The position numbers and the translations under genes were made by a program. Under the pieces are notes generated by a model. It did not search any database, was not told the DNA's origin, and saw nothing but the letters and a program-made list of their open reading frames with translations. Shown here piece after piece: positions 4,794 through 41,596 of a stretch of 41,892 bases of DNA. Source of the DNA: a candidate division WOR-3 bacterium (GTDB taxonomy: Bacteria > Hydrothermota > Hydrothermia > LBFQ01 > DSFT01); assembly GCA_965649115.1 (NCBI GenBank), contig CBFGJN010000011.1, forward strand, positions 1 to 41,892, read 5' to 3'. The stretch's first letter is position 1, and each line of letters opens with the position of its first letter.

Positions 4794-6170
4794 ATGATAA
4801 TCCTTTTTATATCAAGTTTAAATGTTTTATTTAAAGAACCAAATATATATGAGCTTTTATTTCCTTTAAAAAATCCTTATTTATTTAAAAGTTTTTATTT
4901 TATTATCTCTTTGAATTCAGATGTTTCTCAAAGTTCAGCAGTTAAATTAAATTATTCTCCGAATGGAATTTTAAGTGATAGCACTTTTATATATCAAAAA
5001 TTTATTTTTGGACAAAAAGGTGGATTTGATAATTTTTCTATTGGTTTTAAGAAAAATGAATTTCAAATAGATTTAAAAGCTCAATTTAATGAAGTTCTAT
5101 ATATTGAGACAAGTGAAGAAAATCAAATTCAAAATTTGGATATGATATTTGGTAAAATTAGAGATACAATATATCCAACAGATATTAGTGGTCTTGATAG
5201 AAGTCTTATTGTTGAATATAATTTTGACTCACTATATAGAAGAATTGATTTATCTTCCATGGGTAAATTTTCAATTTCTTCAAATCCAATTATTTTTGAA
5301 ATTGGCTATAAAAATTTTTTAGTTTCATCTGAATTTAGATTTATAACTCAAAGTGGAGATTTTATTGAATATGAAGCTAAGAACTTTTATCTTTCTTCAA
5401 GCCCAAAGGTGAAGTTTTTAAATTGCTCAAATTGTAAGTGGTTTGCTTATCTTTTTTCAAGTCCAAAAATTCCCTCACCTTTCAAAATAAAAAGAATTTT
5501 TAATGTAAGTGATAAAAGTCATTTTAGTTTTTATTTAACTTACTTTGATAATAAAACAATTTTAAGATTTGGTTATAGTCCTAAATTAATTATTGAAGGT
5601 GAAATAAATGATGAAATTTCCTATATTTCTCAAATAACAAATGTTGTTGATTCAATAGCTTATGATAAAAGTTCAAATTATCTTTATGCTACAAAAAATG
5701 GTGATACAATTGAAATTTCAAATTATGCTTTGATTTATCTATTTTTCAACTATAAAGATACTACTTATTCAAAAAAACTTAACTTTTTTTATGAAATTCC
5801 TCAAAATTTTATATTTGAATTTTATAGAAATTTTAGGTTTAAAAATGTTGATTTTTCGTTATTTTTTGGACAAAGAAGTTTATCCAATTTATATTTTGGG
5901 GCTTCAATAATTCACAAATTTTATAAAAAAACACTAATTAATTATGGTTATTTATACAATAGGAATTTTAGTTTTGGTTATCATAATGTTTTTATTAATT
6001 TTCTTGTACCAACTGGTAGATTTTTATTCAGTTTTGGTTCTCATATAACGATAAATAAGGAAGGTGAAGAAAAAATTATAAATTCACTGCTAAAAAATTA
6101 TCTTATTGATTATAAACCTTCAAATTATTTGTCATTTGGCATAAATCTTCAAATAAGTTATTTAAGGTAA
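4794..6170 (+). CDS. hypothetical protein, possible outer-membrane beta-barrel
   Basis: 458-aa ORF with aromatic-rich alternating strands and C-terminal LSFGINLQISYLR; short hydrophobic N-terminus. Confidence 0.55.
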   Translation: MIILFISSLNVLFKEPNIYELLFPLKNPYLFKSFYFIISLNSDVSQSSAVKLNYSPNGILSDSTFIYQKFIFGQKGGFDNFSIGFKKNEFQIDLKAQFNEVLYIETSEENQIQNLDMIFGKIRDTIYPTDISGLDRSLIVEYNFDSLYRRIDLSSMGKFSISSNPIIFEIGYKNFLVSSEFRFITQSGDFIEYEAKNFYLSSSPKVKFLNCSNCKWFAYLFSSPKIPSPFKIKRIFNVSDKSHFSFYLTYFDNKTILRFGYSPKLIIEGEINDEISYISQITNVVDSIAYDKSSNYLYATKNGDTIEISNYALIYLFFNYKDTTYSKKLNFFYEIPQNFIFEFYRNFRFKNVDFSLFFGQRSLSNLYFGASIIHKFYKKTLINYGYLYNRNFSFGYHNVFINFLVPTGRFLFSFGSHITINKEGEEKIINSLLKNYLIDYKPSNYLSFGINLQISYLR

Positions 6171-7534: not shown

Positions 7535-7730
7535 TGCTTTGTCCAATAATTCGGAAAGTATAGTTATTTCTATATTTTGCTCAACCACACTAAAATTAAG
7601 GCAGAGCCTTTAAAATACCCATATTTCGGCTTTGCCTCCCATTAAAACCCCCTATAAAATCAAGAATTTCAGAAAACTTTTCATAAATCATTGATTATCA
7701 ATTACTTAACACTATTTATTGGACAAAGCA
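7535..7730 (+). mobile_element. MITE, full copy (196 bp)
   Basis: TGCTTTGTCCAATAATT...TTTATTGGACAAAGCA; flanks aattattta / cattattta (8 of 9 match). Confidence 0.88.
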
Positions 7731-17502: not shown

Positions 17503-17667
17503 TGCCTTGTCTAGTAATTCGGAAAATATCTATTTTACCATATTTTCCCTACCCACCCTAATAATAAGCCTTCGGCTTAAAAATACCCGTTTTTCCGCTA
17601 TGGGAGGCGAAGCCCCCCATTAAATCCCCCGTGAAATCTATAATTTCAGTATTTACTAGACAAGGCA
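17503..17667 (+). mobile_element. MITE, internally deleted copy, 9 bp after the previous copy
   Basis: TGCCTTGTCTAGTAATT...TTTACTAGACAAGGCA. Confidence 0.85.
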
Positions 17668-17668
17668 T

Positions 17669-17786
17669 ATAATTCCAAAACTAACCTGAAAATAAGGCGG
17701 AGCCTTATAAATACCCCTATTTCGGCATTGGTTGGGCTTAAATCAATAATTTGAGCAACTTAACATTATTTAGTATTGTGGAGCAT
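17669..17786 (+). repeat. older degenerate MITE remnant
   Basis: AAGGCGGAGCCTT hairpin, AAATACCCCTATTTCGGC, AAATCAATAATTT. Confidence 0.6.
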
Positions 17787-25471: not shown

Positions 25472-25480
25472 AAAAGCATC

Positions 25481-26584: not shown

Positions 26585-26593
26585 CAAGCTATA

Positions 26594-29810: not shown

Positions 29811-30529
29811 TTATTTTGAAAGTTTAAAGTCTTAGTTGGAATAACCATTCCTAAACCAAGACTATTTTTACTACCTAAGCCACAATTTAAAATGATATTT
29901 TTCATTTCATTTGAACAGGAAATTTTTAAATTTCCACTATAACCAACTATGTAATTTCCCTTGTATTCTAATACTTCTTTCTTATACTCTATAAATTCAA
30001 AGTTAAATTCACCTTCATAATCAGAACCATAAACAAGCTTGAATTTTTTCTTTAAATTTTCAAAAATAAAATTACTAAATTCTTTATCCTTAGGGCTAAA
30101 ATAAACGAATTTCTTATTTATTGTTCTATAAATTGTTATGGGAGATAATGTCTTAAAGAATTCTTTATTTAAATCAAATTTTAGAATTTTATAACCTTTA
30201 AATTTTATTTTTCTTTTGAAAACACTAATAAATCCCTTATTTAAGATGTTTGATATTAAAGATATTACAACCTCATCAATAATTGAAGCAAAGTAAAAGT
30301 GAATGGGACTCTCAAAAACAATTTTTTTATCATATATAGAAAATTTTGAAAAAATTCTTGAAAATGTAAAAAGTTTAAATTTTCTCTTACCATACTCAAA
30401 ACCAACATTATGTAAAAAATCTGAAAAATTTTTGTCCAAATTCTTATAAATAGCAGATTGTAAATAGTAGTTATAATTAATTGGAATTTCTAATTGATTC
30501 TTAAAGGAAAATTCAAATCTAACTATCAT
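29807..30529 (-). CDS. cas6: CRISPR-associated endoribonuclease Cas6 (orphan)
   Basis: YNYYLQSAIY, LHNVG..FKLFTFS, TLSPI, G-loop GLGSKNSLGLGMV; ATG 30529 overlaps folD stop (ATGA). Confidence 0.93.
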   Translation of the reverse strand: MIVRFEFSFKNQLEIPINYNYYLQSAIYKNLDKNFSDFLHNVGFEYGKRKFKLFTFSRIFSKFSIYDKKIVFESPIHFYFASIIDEVVISLISNILNKGFISVFKRKIKFKGYKILKFDLNKEFFKTLSPITIYRTINKKFVYFSPKDKEFSNFIFENLKKKFKLVYGSDYEGEFNFEFIEYKKEVLEYKGNYIVGYSGNLKISCSNEMKNIILNCGLGSKNSLGLGMVIPTKTLNFQNK

Positions 30530-31323
30530 AATTTGAAGCAATTTTCAATTGTAATTGCAGTTGTAATAGGTCCAATTCCACCAGGAACAGGTGTTATCGC
30601 GCTGACTAAATCTTTAACATCTTCAAAATAAACATCTCCAAACAACTTACCATTTAAATAATTTGTCCCAATATCAATAATAATTGAATTTTCTTTTACA
30701 AAACTTCTATCTATGTAATTTGCTTTACCAATTGCACATATTAAAATTTCCGCATTTTTTGTAATTTCTTTTAAATTTTTTGTTTTTGAATGGCATATTG
30801 TAATTGTTGCATTTCTATTTAATAATAGTAAGGATAATGGCTTACCTACAATAATGCTTCTTCCAATTACTACAACATTTTTACCTTCTAATGGAATTTC
30901 ATAATAATCTAATAATTCAATGACCGCTTTTGCTGTACTTGGAACAATAAACTCATTGCCATATAAAATTTTCCCAAGGTTTAATGGATTTAAACCTTCA
31001 ATATCTTTATTTGGATCAATTTTAGAAAGGACATTTAATGGATTTATTTGTTTCGGAAGTGGCATTTCAACAAAAATACCCTTAATATCATTCCTTTCAT
31101 TAATTTCACAAATTATATCTATTAGTTCAGTTTCGGTTGTATTTTTGTTAAGTTTTACAATTTCTGCTTCAATTTGAAATTCAGAAAATTTTTTTATTTT
31201 ACTATTTAAATATGAAATTGTTGATAAATCATTTGTCAAAACAATTATGGCTATTTTTATAGGTTTTGGCTTTATTCGCTGATATATTCTTTGTGCAACA
31301 GGCTTGCCTAATAATAACTTCAA
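30526..31323 (-). CDS. folD: methylenetetrahydrofolate dehydrogenase/cyclohydrolase
   Basis: KDIEG, GRSIIVGKP, ITPVPGGIGPIT; TTG start 7 nt after TAAAAT. Confidence 0.95.
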   Translation of the reverse strand: MKLLLGKPVAQRIYQRIKPKPIKIAIIVLTNDLSTISYLNSKIKKFSEFQIEAEIVKLNKNTTETELIDIICEINERNDIKGIFVEMPLPKQINPLNVLSKIDPNKDIEGLNPLNLGKILYGNEFIVPSTAKAVIELLDYYEIPLEGKNVVVIGRSIIVGKPLSLLLLNRNATITICHSKTKNLKEITKNAEILICAIGKANYIDRSFVKENSIIIDIGTNYLNGKLFGDVYFEDVKDLVSAITPVPGGIGPITTAITIENCFKL

Positions 31324-31507
31324 GTTTGAAATTTTAAAGGAAGTACATTTATATCTTTTGTTTTGTCTAGTAATTCGGAAATATAGATTATTTTTTATTT
31401 TTTCCCACCCGTCCTAAAAATAAGCCTTCGGCTTTAATTTCGCCCCCCTTTGGTGAGAAGTTTAATCCAATTATTTATGATAAGGATAGCTTTTTAAGGC
31501 TTTTGAG

Positions 31508-31705
31508 TTAGTCTTCATCTAAATTCTCAAATTCTTCGTCGTCATCTTCTTCTATAAGTATTCTGGGATTTTTTATAAATTTCCTCATAAAGTATTCTAT
31601 TATTCTTGAAGGAATATAACCCATTTTATCGCATTTAATCTGAAAATCATACCAAACATCTTGGTCAATAAATAATGTTATACCCTTTCTTTTAGTTTCG
31701 TTCAT
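31508..31705 (-). CDS. small RHH/CopG-like DNA-binding protein with acidic tail
   Basis: KRKGITLFID strand, helix, G-turn, SRIIEYFMRKFI helix; ATGA-coupled to the upstream gene. Confidence 0.6.
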   Translation of the reverse strand: MNETKRKGITLFIDQDVWYDFQIKCDKMGYIPSRIIEYFMRKFIKNPRILIEEDDDEEFENLDED

Positions 31706-32430
31706 TTTTTATATTCAAGTATTTTAATTTTTTTGTTGATAATGTCAAAATAGCAAAGTTCAATTGAATGGAAAACTTTATATATTTCGTCTTCTTTTTC
31801 TGAAATAACTTCTTTTATTTTTTTGTCATCCATCGCTAAAAATCTTGATAAAATTACTCCAACTTTTGGAACTAAACAATTTACTTCATTTCCTCTTTTT
31901 ATTAGTTGCTCTATGGCATTTTTTAATGTGTTTTCATTTAAAACATTTTTGATTTCAATTATGAAATAATTCCTCCTGCTTTCTAATTCTAATATAAAGT
32001 CAGCACCACCTTCTGGAATGTGAGTAATTCTATATTTTTTAAATGATTTTTCTGAAATGTATAATTTTAATAAATCCCATTCGTTTCCTTCACTTCTTAT
32101 TTTCTTTATGCCTTCTATTATTTGTCCTAAATAGGATTTTTCTTGACCATCCTCCTGGTAATATAAGCCTTCATAAATTCTTTTTAAATAAGGAATTTTT
32201 TGCCCATCTTTTTGATAATATAAGGCTTCATCTATTTTTTTAGATAGAGAATTAAAACCATTATCTATTTTTTCAGATAAAGAATTAAAACCAGTATCAA
32301 TTTTTTCGGATAGAGATTTAAAACCTTCTTTAAGCGTTTTTAGAATTTCTATTAGAATATCTTTTGGGGTTTCAGGAATTATTTCCTCTGGTTTTCCTCC
32401 CATTTGTTCTTTTATTTCTTTCTCTTCCAT
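31702..32430 (-). CDS. coiled-coil repeat protein with C-terminal PD-(D/E)xK nuclease-like domain
   Basis: 11-aa and 19-aa repeats, then GADFILE..FIIEIK..AIEQL. Confidence 0.6.
   Translation of the reverse strand: MEEKEIKEQMGGKPEEIIPETPKDILIEILKTLKEGFKSLSEKIDTGFNSLSEKIDNGFNSLSKKIDEALYYQKDGQKIPYLKRIYEGLYYQEDGQEKSYLGQIIEGIKKIRSEGNEWDLLKLYISEKSFKKYRITHIPEGGADFILELESRRNYFIIEIKNVLNENTLKNAIEQLIKRGNEVNCLVPKVGVILSRFLAMDDKKIKEVISEKEDEIYKVFHSIELCYFDIINKKIKILEYKK
32110..32331 (-). repeat. intragenic tandem repeats (3 x 33 nt; 2 x 57 nt)
   Basis: GF(K/N)SLS(E/K)KID three times; LYYQ(K/E)DGQ...YL..I.EG twice. Confidence 0.85.
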
Positions 32431-32466
32431 AACTTTGAAATTTTAAAGCATTTTTTTATAATTATT

Positions 32467-32784
32467 TGCTGTGTCTAGTAATTCTGGAACTATTTATTTT
32501 ATTATATTTCTCCCGCCCGCCCTATAATTGAGCCTTCGGCTCTACTTACCCATATTTCGGCTATGGGGGGCTCCGCCCTCCATTAGATCCCCCGTAAAAT
32601 AAATGATTTTCTTAAAATTTCATAAGTTATTGATTATCAATTATTTAACACCATATAAATACTCAACTTTTCGCCAGGGGGCTACCGCCCCCTTTAATAA
32701 ACCCCCTATAAAAACGATAATTTCAGAAAATTTTTTACAAGTTATTGATTATCAATCACTTAACATCATTTATTGGACAAAGCA
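32467..32784 (+). mobile_element. MITE copy with duplicated right half (318 bp)
   Basis: TGCTGTGTCTAGTAATT start; GC hairpin plus TTGATTATCAA module occurs twice. Confidence 0.85.
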
Positions 32785-32793
32785 TATATCTTT

Positions 32794-32850
32794 TGCTTTC
32801 CTAATAATAAGTCTTCGGCTTATAAATGCCCATTCTTATGCCTCGGGATG
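32794..32850 (+). repeat. MITE remnant 9 bp after the previous end
   Basis: TGCTTT then CCTAATAATAAGTCTTCGGCTTATAAATGCCCAT. Confidence 0.65.
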
Positions 32851-32858
32851 CAAAGATT

Positions 32859-33206
32859 TTATTGATTATCGCTATATTCAATACCAAAATTTTCTGTTTC
32901 CCAAAGAATAACCTTTTCTAAATTTGGATATTTTTCTTTAATTTTTTTATAGAAAAATTTTGCTAGATTTTCGCAAGTAGGATTGAAGTCATAAAATTCA
33001 TTTAAAAATTTTCTATCAGGAACTAAACTTTTTAGAAAATTTTCAACTTCAAGAAAATCATAAGTTATCTCTTCATCATTTAATCTATCAGAGTTAATAT
33101 GAACTTCAAGTAAGTAATTGTGACCATGAATTTCCTCAGGCTTACCCTTATAACTTCTTAAAAAATGAGCAGCAGAAAATTTAATTTTTACAATTGTTTT
33201 AAACAT
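32859..33206 (-). CDS. queD: 6-carboxytetrahydropterin synthase
   Basis: FSAAH, HGHNY, NPTCENLA, LWET. Confidence 0.88.
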   Translation of the reverse strand: MFKTIVKIKFSAAHFLRSYKGKPEEIHGHNYLLEVHINSDRLNDEEITYDFLEVENFLKSLVPDRKFLNEFYDFNPTCENLAKFFYKKIKEKYPNLEKVILWETENFGIEYSDNQ

Positions 33207-33475: not shown

Positions 33476-33629
33476 ATTTTTTTCTGTTTATTATATTTTC
33501 CCGCCCACCCTACGAATTAAGCCTTTGGCTTTTAAATACCCATTTTTATGCCTTGGGGGGCTTACTTTATTGGACAAACTAGTAATTCCACTTTAAAATA
33601 CCTCAACTTTTGCTTTTGGGGGCAAAGCA
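33476..33629 (+). repeat. degenerate MITE fragments
   Basis: CCCGCCCACCC, AAGCCTTTGGCTT, TTATTGGACAAA. Confidence 0.7.
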
Positions 33630-41587: not shown

Positions 41588-41596
41588 CTTAGTAGA

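Follow-up and report, generated by a model that had tools for sequence, protein, structure and literature searches.

A 41,892-nt stretch of DNA (contig CBFGJN010000011.1, here C11, of the metagenome-derived assembly GCA_965649115.1 from a candidate division WOR-3 bacterium) carries, between the genes folD and queD, a 1426-bp unit (31359–32784) in which two passenger genes lie between pieces of MITEs (miniature inverted-repeat transposable elements), the whole being flanked by a perfect 9-bp direct repeat. We call the full 41,892 nt the window. The source genome (G000) comprises 1.85 Mb in 99 contigs at 27.6% G+C, and the sequencing runs that contain the stretch are mostly labelled hot-spring metagenomes. 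Contigs of G000 carry C numbers, G001–G004 are four same-genus genomes, L numbers are loci or contigs of relatives, and X4–X7 are other sequencing runs. The locus is built as follows, where ORF stands for open reading frame and TIR for terminal inverted repeat.

30526–31323, minus strand: folD, bifunctional methylene-tetrahydrofolate dehydrogenase/cyclohydrolase (ORF; Pfam PF02882, 2.9e-61, and PF00763, 4.8e-22)
31325–31339, minus strand: folD promoter-like 15-nt box, TTTGAAATTTTAAAG on the plus strand, TAAAAT on the gene strand (sequence)
31350–31358, no strand: TATATCTTT, left-hand member of the 9-bp direct repeat (target-site duplication; sequence)
31359–31453, plus strand: truncated MITE, consensus positions 1–95 (nhmmer match at positions 2–95, 52 bits; pairwise alignment)
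31454–31507, no strand: spacer of 54 nt from the truncated MITE to the ORF65 stop codon (sequence)
31508–31705, minus strand: ORF65, second gene of the pair (ORF; 4-nt overlap with ORF242)
31702–32430, minus strand: ORF242 (ORF; no Pfam family above cut-off)
32434–32448, minus strand: ORF242 promoter-like box, holding the −10 motif at 32440–32445 (sequence; 18 nt from the inner MITE left end)
32458–32466, no strand: ATAATTATT, the 9-mer at the inner left end, with no partner on the right (sequence)
32467–about 32654, plus strand: MITE piece B, spanning consensus 1 to about 190, with a left TIR but no right end (nhmmer 1–190, 151 bits)
32654–32784, plus strand: MITE piece A, consensus about 76–205, with the right TIR ATTTATTGGACAAAGCA at 32768–32784 (nhmmer 76–205)
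32785–32793, no strand: right copy of TATATCTTT (sequence)
32794–32858, plus strand: older degenerate MITE remnant, TGCTTT followed by consensus about 50–110 (nhmmer 55–109 at 32800–32854; alignment; repeat family D3)
32859–33206, minus strand: queD, 6-carboxy-tetrahydropterin synthase family (Pfam PF01242, 9.9e-27)

The truncated MITE beside folD keeps an intact left TIR (TGTTTTGTCTAGTAATT, 31359–31375) and has no right end, with weak gapped similarity to the consensus extending toward 31530; its closest sibling in G000 is 91% identical and lies on C5. On the far side, pieces B and A are fused out of register (consensus position 190 joined to 76). Piece B is closest to a copy on C18 (88% identity), and piece A matches C49:4125–4255 with 98.5% identity over 131 nt. 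Both outer TIRs (31359–31375 and 32768–32784) lie within three mismatches of the 17-nt TIR pattern and belong to one 205-bp family; inside the unit there is neither a right end before 32768 nor an inner copy of TATATCTTT. No transposase was found among the ORFs of at least 60 aa within the unit: only ORF242 and ORF65 have conserved homologues, and neither matches a transposase family. The folD box stands 19 nt from the MITE left end, with 10 nt between the box and the left 9-mer. Directly after the right 9-mer, the older remnant runs up to the stop codon of queD.

This anatomy refines an original prediction made from the letters of the window. That prediction placed a lone MITE left end at 31359, which is indeed a left end but belongs to a truncated MITE (positions 1–95), and a single inner MITE at 32467–32784, which is MITE sequence but an out-of-register fusion of two different copies. 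It rightly saw that the inner MITE has no matching flanks, ATAATTATT agreeing with the right flank at 4/9 positions. The predicted two-gene operon with its own −10 motif is a real pair with a promoter-like box, although the motif falls within a box that recurs 806-fold in the genome. The unit does separate queD from folD at this locus, although the two genes are not neighbours in G001, G004 or G003.

The C49 copy that resembles piece A (C49:4125–4330) has a degenerate left TIR abutting the box-like sequence TTTTAAAGG, and beyond TATTTGATT it is followed by another MITE.

The paired 9-bp repeat against chance

The identical 9-mers predicted to flank the outer ends, 31359 and 32784, are confirmed: TATATCTTT stands at both 31350–31358 and 32785–32793. 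The 17-nt TIR pattern, at three mismatches or fewer, defines 800 MITE ends in G000, and TATATCTTT flanks 2 of these 800, the two outer ends only; it is not the common flank that would have made the match trivial. The 9-mer itself occurs 150 times in the 1.85-Mb genome, counting both strands. Among the 203 adjacent left–right pairs with both flanks, 91 have perfect 9-bp duplications, against 0.72 after shuffling of partners, and 9 bp is therefore the duplication length of the family.

Identical flanks at a distance are far rarer. They occur in 16 of 964 non-adjacent left-before-right pairs, comprising 15 tandem sets (327–528 bp) and the present 1426-bp pair. When ends are more than 600 bp apart on the same contig, one of 916 left-before-right pairs is perfect, and it is this one, the result of a genome-wide scan of distant TIR pairs of the kind proposed with the original prediction. 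Chance would give 0.03 such pairs if flanks were random genomic 9-mers (3.4e-5 per pair), and 0.33 at the empirical rate for ends on different contigs (108/302,876 = 3.6e-4). For the 117 pairs lying 600–3000 bp apart, the corresponding expectations are 0.004 and 0.04. A third null, with flanks drawn from all ends, gives 1.6 and was not used, because every true partner stays in its pool and inflates it.

The MITE family, its target rule and its parent

We built a 205-bp consensus from 51 full copies with perfect duplications. The nhmmer profile of this family finds 730 matches covering 5.2% of the genome, 220 of them full length. The 15-nt box TTTGAAATTTTAAAG occurs 806 times genome-wide at two or fewer mismatches, and often has a start codon within a few bases downstream, which suggests very short or absent leaders. 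Consensus-left ends keep a fixed register with this box, which lies 17–20 nt outside 95 of 363 and 9–13 nt outside another 35 (130/363 in total); at the same distances it is found outside 4 of 271 consensus-right ends. Insertion is thus targeted to a fixed spacing from the box and is oriented, the left end pointing at the gene.

Copies also stack at these sites. Head-to-tail junctions have a spacer of exactly 9 bp in 77 of 107 cases; the window itself holds examples at 25472–25480, 26585–26593 and 41588–41596. The spacer is identical to the outer flank of the promoter-proximal copy in 26 of the 57 junctions where this could be tested, and to that of the distal copy in 9 of 33; where two full copies are paired, the family profile scores the proximal one above the distal one in 18 of 25. 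It follows that new insertions enter the same 9 bp beside the box and displace older copies outward. The unit at folD follows these family rules, its left end facing the box at 19 nt and an older copy standing exactly 9 bp beyond it: it occupies folD's canonical MITE target, and the remnant at 32794 would, by the stacking rule, be an earlier occupant of that target.

Internal hairpins of the family come in variants, AAGCC-TTCG-GGCTT (for example, 7594–7641 and 17690–17737) and AAGGC-NNNG-GCCTT (17562–17609); the variants differ on both sides, and the stem is therefore kept.

Two sequences that start with the same TIR and then diverge from the MITE are found at 16 and 10 of the 198 contig ends of G000 (26 in total; for example, C93:1–236, C50:14008–14223 and C71:1–127), the interior between them not being assembled. 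Such arms at contig ends are the mark of a multi-copy insertion sequence (IS) breaking the assembly. One arm opens an ORF that over its first 56 residues shares 92% identity with a 300-aa protein in public data that carries PF01609 and PF13737 and scores 245 bits against NCBIfam NF033579 (IS5 family transposase; cut-off 140). A Pfam search with the 56-aa fragment itself returned no family. A multi-copy IS5-family parent is thus present in the same genome, and the 205-bp element, its TIR shared with the IS and its 9-bp duplication are the attributes of an IS5-family-derived MITE. Presumably the parent belongs to the IS903 group, going by the ends and 9-bp duplication of IS903. PF01609 has no match in the four same-genus genomes; of 8 relatives searched, two outside the genus matched. 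One of these matches (L030 in G005) was considered as the parent and rejected, having no matching TIR.

The passenger gene pair

ORF242 is bipartite, with an N-terminal half of short repeats (GFxSLSxKID and YYQxDGQ units) and a C-terminal domain that bears a D...ExK signature, in which D144, E159 and K161 are invariant across 5 homologous sequences. Relatives are scarce: among 5.8 billion proteins there are 3 besides ORF242 itself, at 52–87% identity. No Pfam or NCBIfam family passes its cut-off. The structure model has a pLDDT of 75–92 over residues 120–242 (64.7 overall), and Foldseek returns weak matches (TM about 0.3) in which the PD-(D/E)xK nucleases SfsA, NucC, XisH and NucS appear among unrelated proteins; the Atlas label, PDDEXK_3 at 0.90, serves as a lead only. 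Judged from the model and signature, a nuclease fold for the C-terminal domain is likely but not established. ORF65 falls below cut-offs with PF04221 (RelB; E=0.019, 15.3 versus 22.4 bits) and TIGR02384 (E=0.059, 13.6 versus 45.65 bits), a weak similarity suggesting a RelB-like or ribbon-helix-helix (RHH)-like protein. PADLOC defence models matched neither cargo protein (0 families). In run X5, one contig (depth 4.09) has 9 extra letters behind 32236, in frame within the ORF242 repeat region.

An ORF65 homologue lies directly downstream of the ORF242 homologue in 6 of 12 loci (L018, L024, L025, L026, L027 and L029), and ORF242–ORF65 is a real conserved gene pair. Its surroundings are those of another kind of mobile element: a tyrosine integrase of 168–170 aa upstream (L018, L023, L027 and L029) and, downstream and convergent, a 169-aa P-loop ATPase that is 91–97% identical between loci (L018 and L024–L027). 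The small conserved element outlined by L018 (G004:C27) and L024–L029 consists of the integrase, an ORF of about 95 aa, the ORF242-like and ORF65-like genes and the convergent ATPase. From this context the cargo is therefore a two-gene fragment of a small integrase-bearing element. None of these loci has a MITE match. Within G000 there is no match to that ATPase, and integrase matches are distant (31–33% identity). Searches of viral contigs (IMG/VR) with the ORF242 alignment or the L018 integrase gave no match, and species-genome contigs held no cargo relative.

Locus L023 dates part of the assembly of the unit. It is 100% identical to the window for about 200 nt (32466 to about 32270), from around codon 55 of ORF242 through the box to ATAATTATT, and the identity stops exactly at the inner MITE left end; the inner MITE therefore homed to the ORF242 box after the two lineages shared that DNA. 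The L023 contig (match at 4900–5165) otherwise shares no DNA with G000; it carries a tyrosine integrase, an IS110-family transposase and a weakly Fusellovirus-VP2-like ORF, and just upstream the 9-mer AATAATTA(T/C) is repeated in tandem about every 10 nt.

G000 also holds a truncated paralogue at C26:10619–10867 (L012 829–1077), an 82-aa stub of ORF242 type that is 93% identical over 161 nt. Here too the box is present, and a MITE left end stands 36 nt upstream of the start; the stub is joined to a ribosome-binding site, that of a 3-hydroxyacyl-CoA-dehydrogenase-like gene. A 209-aa protein from another genome (P0003) looks like the intact form of this stub; it is a paralogue with another N-terminus that shares the C-terminal part of ORF242.

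Proposed composite transposition and its alternatives

We read 31359–32784 as a non-autonomous, MITE-bounded composite transposon moved in trans, a reading to which we give an even chance. At the donor locus, the gene pair would have had MITEs stacked at ORF242's own box (pieces B and A) and, at the box of the next gene downstream, another MITE, now the truncated left one. The inner MITE ends would have been lost, at whatever time, through simple deletions. Acting in trans, an IS5-family transposase from the multi-copy parent IS would then have recognised the two outer TIRs and placed all 1426 bp beside the older MITE, with the left end toward the gene, in the 9-bp target starting 10 nt upstream of folD's box, duplicating TATATCTTT. 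The site that received the unit is folD's promoter-proximal target; the right 9-mer is folD's own target, and everything between the two copies would therefore have entered at folD's site. An older copy standing exactly 9 bp beyond the unit is what one later insertion would leave. The outer pieces are not halves of one copy: the right one is 98.5% identical to C49, which is outside the top six matches of the left one. Pieces A and B, as aligned, have the look that an array at ORF242's box would be expected to have after one internal deletion. The broader proposition, that a promoter-homing IS5-family transposase carries whole genes and here picked up an integrase-element module between MITEs homed to neighbouring boxes and delivered it, in a fixed orientation, exactly 19 nt upstream of a housekeeping gene's box, we advance more tentatively, as somewhat less likely than not.

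Several observations weigh on the other side. Stacking in one 9-bp target also yields identical outer 9-mers without composite transposition, the other 15 non-adjacent perfect pairs are tandem arrays, and the empirical rate of identical flanks is tenfold above the random-9-mer rate. The cargo meets the MITEs at non-TIR joints inside them (left, about 95–118; right, 190-to-76), and the module has an alternative means of travel in its integrase-bearing element. A PF01609 search of G000 gave 0 matches, the complete transposase gene not being assembled. A second copy of the cargo is absent from the 1.85-Mb assembly (tblastn and blastn), where only the C26 stub appears, and a DNA search did not find the cargo in G001–G004 (among 30 relatives searched). 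No empty site can be read in G001–G004, where the surroundings of folD are non-syntenic or broken by contig ends. G001 and G004 have folD and queD on separate contigs, each mid-contig among other neighbours and without the pair; in G003 they are also on separate contigs, one of which ends near folD; and the closest relative, G002 (88% identity), has a folD contig that breaks off within a MITE of opposite orientation, and another gene follows its queD. The sequence downstream of queD in G002 was sought in G000 and found no convincing match. Nor is there an empty-site or excision joint among the joints listed, which are part of those in the contigs of the four other runs. One candidate, an X6 joint of 31341 to 32465, was rejected as an empty site and read as another locus: it has 15 intervening letters, a 20-letter side and a box found at many loci.

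Independent contigs support most of the unit, with one gap that counts against it. The join between the truncated MITE and the cargo (about 31391–31470) is unbridged among the independent contigs listed, and a related-strain contig of X6 (record 17, roughly 91–96%) matches 31451–31627 and diverges at 31451, continuing for 292 further letters outside the alignment. X4 has no cover of 31467–31547, from which we draw nothing. The X6 strain differs from the window at 43 of 477 positions in folD and at 6 of 499 in the C-terminal part of ORF242. Its cover of a window-type ORF242 N-terminus is low (depth 11 in 32358–32438) and a P0003-type paralogue shares the C-terminus; because of this we do not assert that X6 carries the pair at the folD site. 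The remaining joins are bridged. X4 record 1 (30975–31391, 0 differences) links folD with the left end; X4 record 3 (32084–32501, 0 differences) and X7 record 25 link ORF242 with the inner left end; and X7 record 28 (32634–32841) spans piece A, the 9-mer and the remnant. These bridges tell against a chimeric contig or a chance 9-mer match with no unit behind it, an explanation that a 99-contig metagenome assembly with 5.2% of its bases in this MITE, the unbridged 31391–31470 and the 0.33 pairs expected over 916 at the empirical rate of 3.6e-4 would otherwise invite. A mis-join inside the unit would still leave both 9-mers on pieces with independent support, the right one contiguous with the cargo; TATATCTTT flanks no other end, and the expectation for the 117 pairs within 3 kb is 0.004–0.04. 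We regard artefact or coincidence as improbable.

A more serious competitor starts from a MITE array, or a split MITE, formed by one or two ordinary MITEs that entered folD's target in succession and so acquired identical outer 9-mers; the module, a MITE already at its own box, would later have replaced the interior by a TIR-independent route (illegitimate recombination, repair of a break from an ectopic template, or integration and later decay of the integrase element), removing the inner ends. Stacking of the necessary kind is common (77 of 107 junctions with a 9-bp spacer; 15 tandem sets with common outer 9-mers), the homologues' element has a tyrosine integrase (L018, L023, L027 and L029) and a P-loop ATPase (L018 and L024–L027), both cargo boundaries lie at non-TIR positions inside MITEs and are not transposition joints, and the left piece has the variant TTTCGCC in common with the subfamily of the right piece. 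This route nevertheless needs two illegitimate joints inside MITEs and the loss of about 170 bp, where the composite needs simple deletions. Integrase, ATPase and any att-like repeat are absent from the unit, the integrase matches in G000 are distant (31–33%) with no ATPase match, the two outer pieces have different closest relatives, and decay is further advanced in the proximal piece, the reverse of the 18-of-25 trend in full–full arrays. On balance we think it unlikely. Its simple form, one MITE split by an insertion, is rejected: the right part is 98.5% identical to the C49 copy and the left part 91% identical to another, and the two overlap on the consensus where they should abut. Alternatively, ORF242 and ORF65 might be old residents between queD and folD, with MITEs accumulating at boxes on either side. 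The left ends do stand at canonical box distances (19 nt for folD, 18 nt for ORF242), and cargo G+C (25.5%) matches that of folD (26.3%) and queD (24.1%). Yet the right flank of piece A should then be ORF242's ATAATTATT and is folD's TATATCTTT, and the older remnant bears folD's 9-mer 1.4 kb from folD's box; in G001 and G004 the pair is missing, folD and queD each being found in the middle of a separate contig, the homologues of the pair sit in an integrase-bearing element and not beside folD, and the order queD–ORF242–ORF65–folD without MITEs is absent from the 4 same-genus genomes, which makes residence very improbable. We also considered the 9-mer as interior MITE sequence of a third remnant, which the alignment allows, and dropped it, there being no MITE positions 1–36 to the left of 31350.

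Mobilization of passengers by pairs of miniature elements is known. Transposition of TIME-COMP1 and TIME-COMP2, composites with a MITE-like TIME at either end, was caught experimentally, with 5-bp repeats (PMC4133298). These Tn3-derived elements of Pseudomonas resemble the present unit in that two miniature elements bracket passengers with no inner transposase and a family-typical duplication surrounds the whole; TIME-COMPs moved in trans, with TIMEs direct or inverted. They differ in being Tn3-family composites with 5-bp duplications and two intact TIMEs, caught in a trap plasmid. Here the ends are IS5-family, the duplication is 9 bp, one MITE is truncated and one chimeric, insertion is at a promoter box, and the case is known from sequence alone. 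Also of this kind are class 1 integrons of Acinetobacter flanked by two copies of a 439-bp MITE (PMC3934969) and a 76-kb mer region flanked by MITE-297 (PMC6382973). There, as here, two MITE copies surround cargo and mobilization is deduced from outer direct repeats, and the integrons bring resistance cargo on plasmids of clinical or sewage isolates. The unit differs in its nuclease-like and RHH-like pair, its place in the chromosome of an uncultured hot-spring bacterium and its unlike bounding copies. Tn6645, considered as a further MITE-bounded composite, was rejected, being bounded by ISAba3 according to its published description.

Two further comparisons place the unit by transposase and by architecture. 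Tn903-type composites consist of two complete, transposase-encoding IS903 copies (IS5 family, 9-bp duplications) whose outer ends act together; transposase family and duplication length are the same here, whereas the flanks are non-coding and the transposase would come from elsewhere in the genome. Pack-MULEs are single non-autonomous plant elements with host gene fragments captured internally, between their TIRs. The unit is likewise non-autonomous with host-derived sequence between TIRs, but its TIRs are the ends of separate copies around intact genes.

The likeness to MITE-flanked integron modules drawn in the original prediction is thus apt, and that to Pack-MULEs is not, since those carry captured fragments inside a single element. 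Its proposal that the MITE family mobilizes passenger genes without encoding a transposase agrees with the anatomy, the 9-bp rule and the parent IS, but no direct evidence of movement was obtained: neither the relatives nor the listed joints of the four runs offered an empty site, and the cargo was not met elsewhere in G000 with different 9-bp flanks, only as the truncated C26 paralogue. Equally, no relative was found with the two genes at this locus and no MITE ends. The perfect duplication, taken at first as strong evidence for a composite, weighs less in a family that reuses the same 9 bp and builds arrays.

The kind of structure is already known from TIME-COMPs and MITE-flanked integrons; the twist lies in promoter-homing, IS5-family MITE ends and a passenger from another mobile element. 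So far, passenger mobilization by MITE pairs has been documented mainly for Tn3-derived TIMEs and clinical resistance integrons. If the unit moved as one piece, it would add an IS5-family system with promoter homing, in an uncultured thermophile where MITEs make up 5% of the genome, and would show the re-housing of an integrase-element fragment in a chromosome. Should the transposase indeed carry whole genes, then, with about half of the boxes carrying a MITE, any gene flanked by a pair of occupied boxes would amount to a latent composite, a general route for gene shuffling between promoter-proximal sites. If instead the interior was replaced, the locus exemplifies the weak value of a perfect duplication when a family reuses its target site. 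At 1.4 kb, the unit also offers a small substrate for the target rule of this transposase.

Next to the unit, the MITE remnant overlaps or abuts the final codons and stop of queD (32794–32880), and the encoded C terminus reads GIEYSDNQ* here and GIEYSE* in G002. Beyond queD, a zinc-ribbon gene (PF13453, 33206–33451) stands between it and a divergent 349-aa gene, with a MITE fragment at 33486–33563; queD and the divergent gene face each other directly in G002, and G001 and G004 have the zinc-ribbon gene on other contigs.

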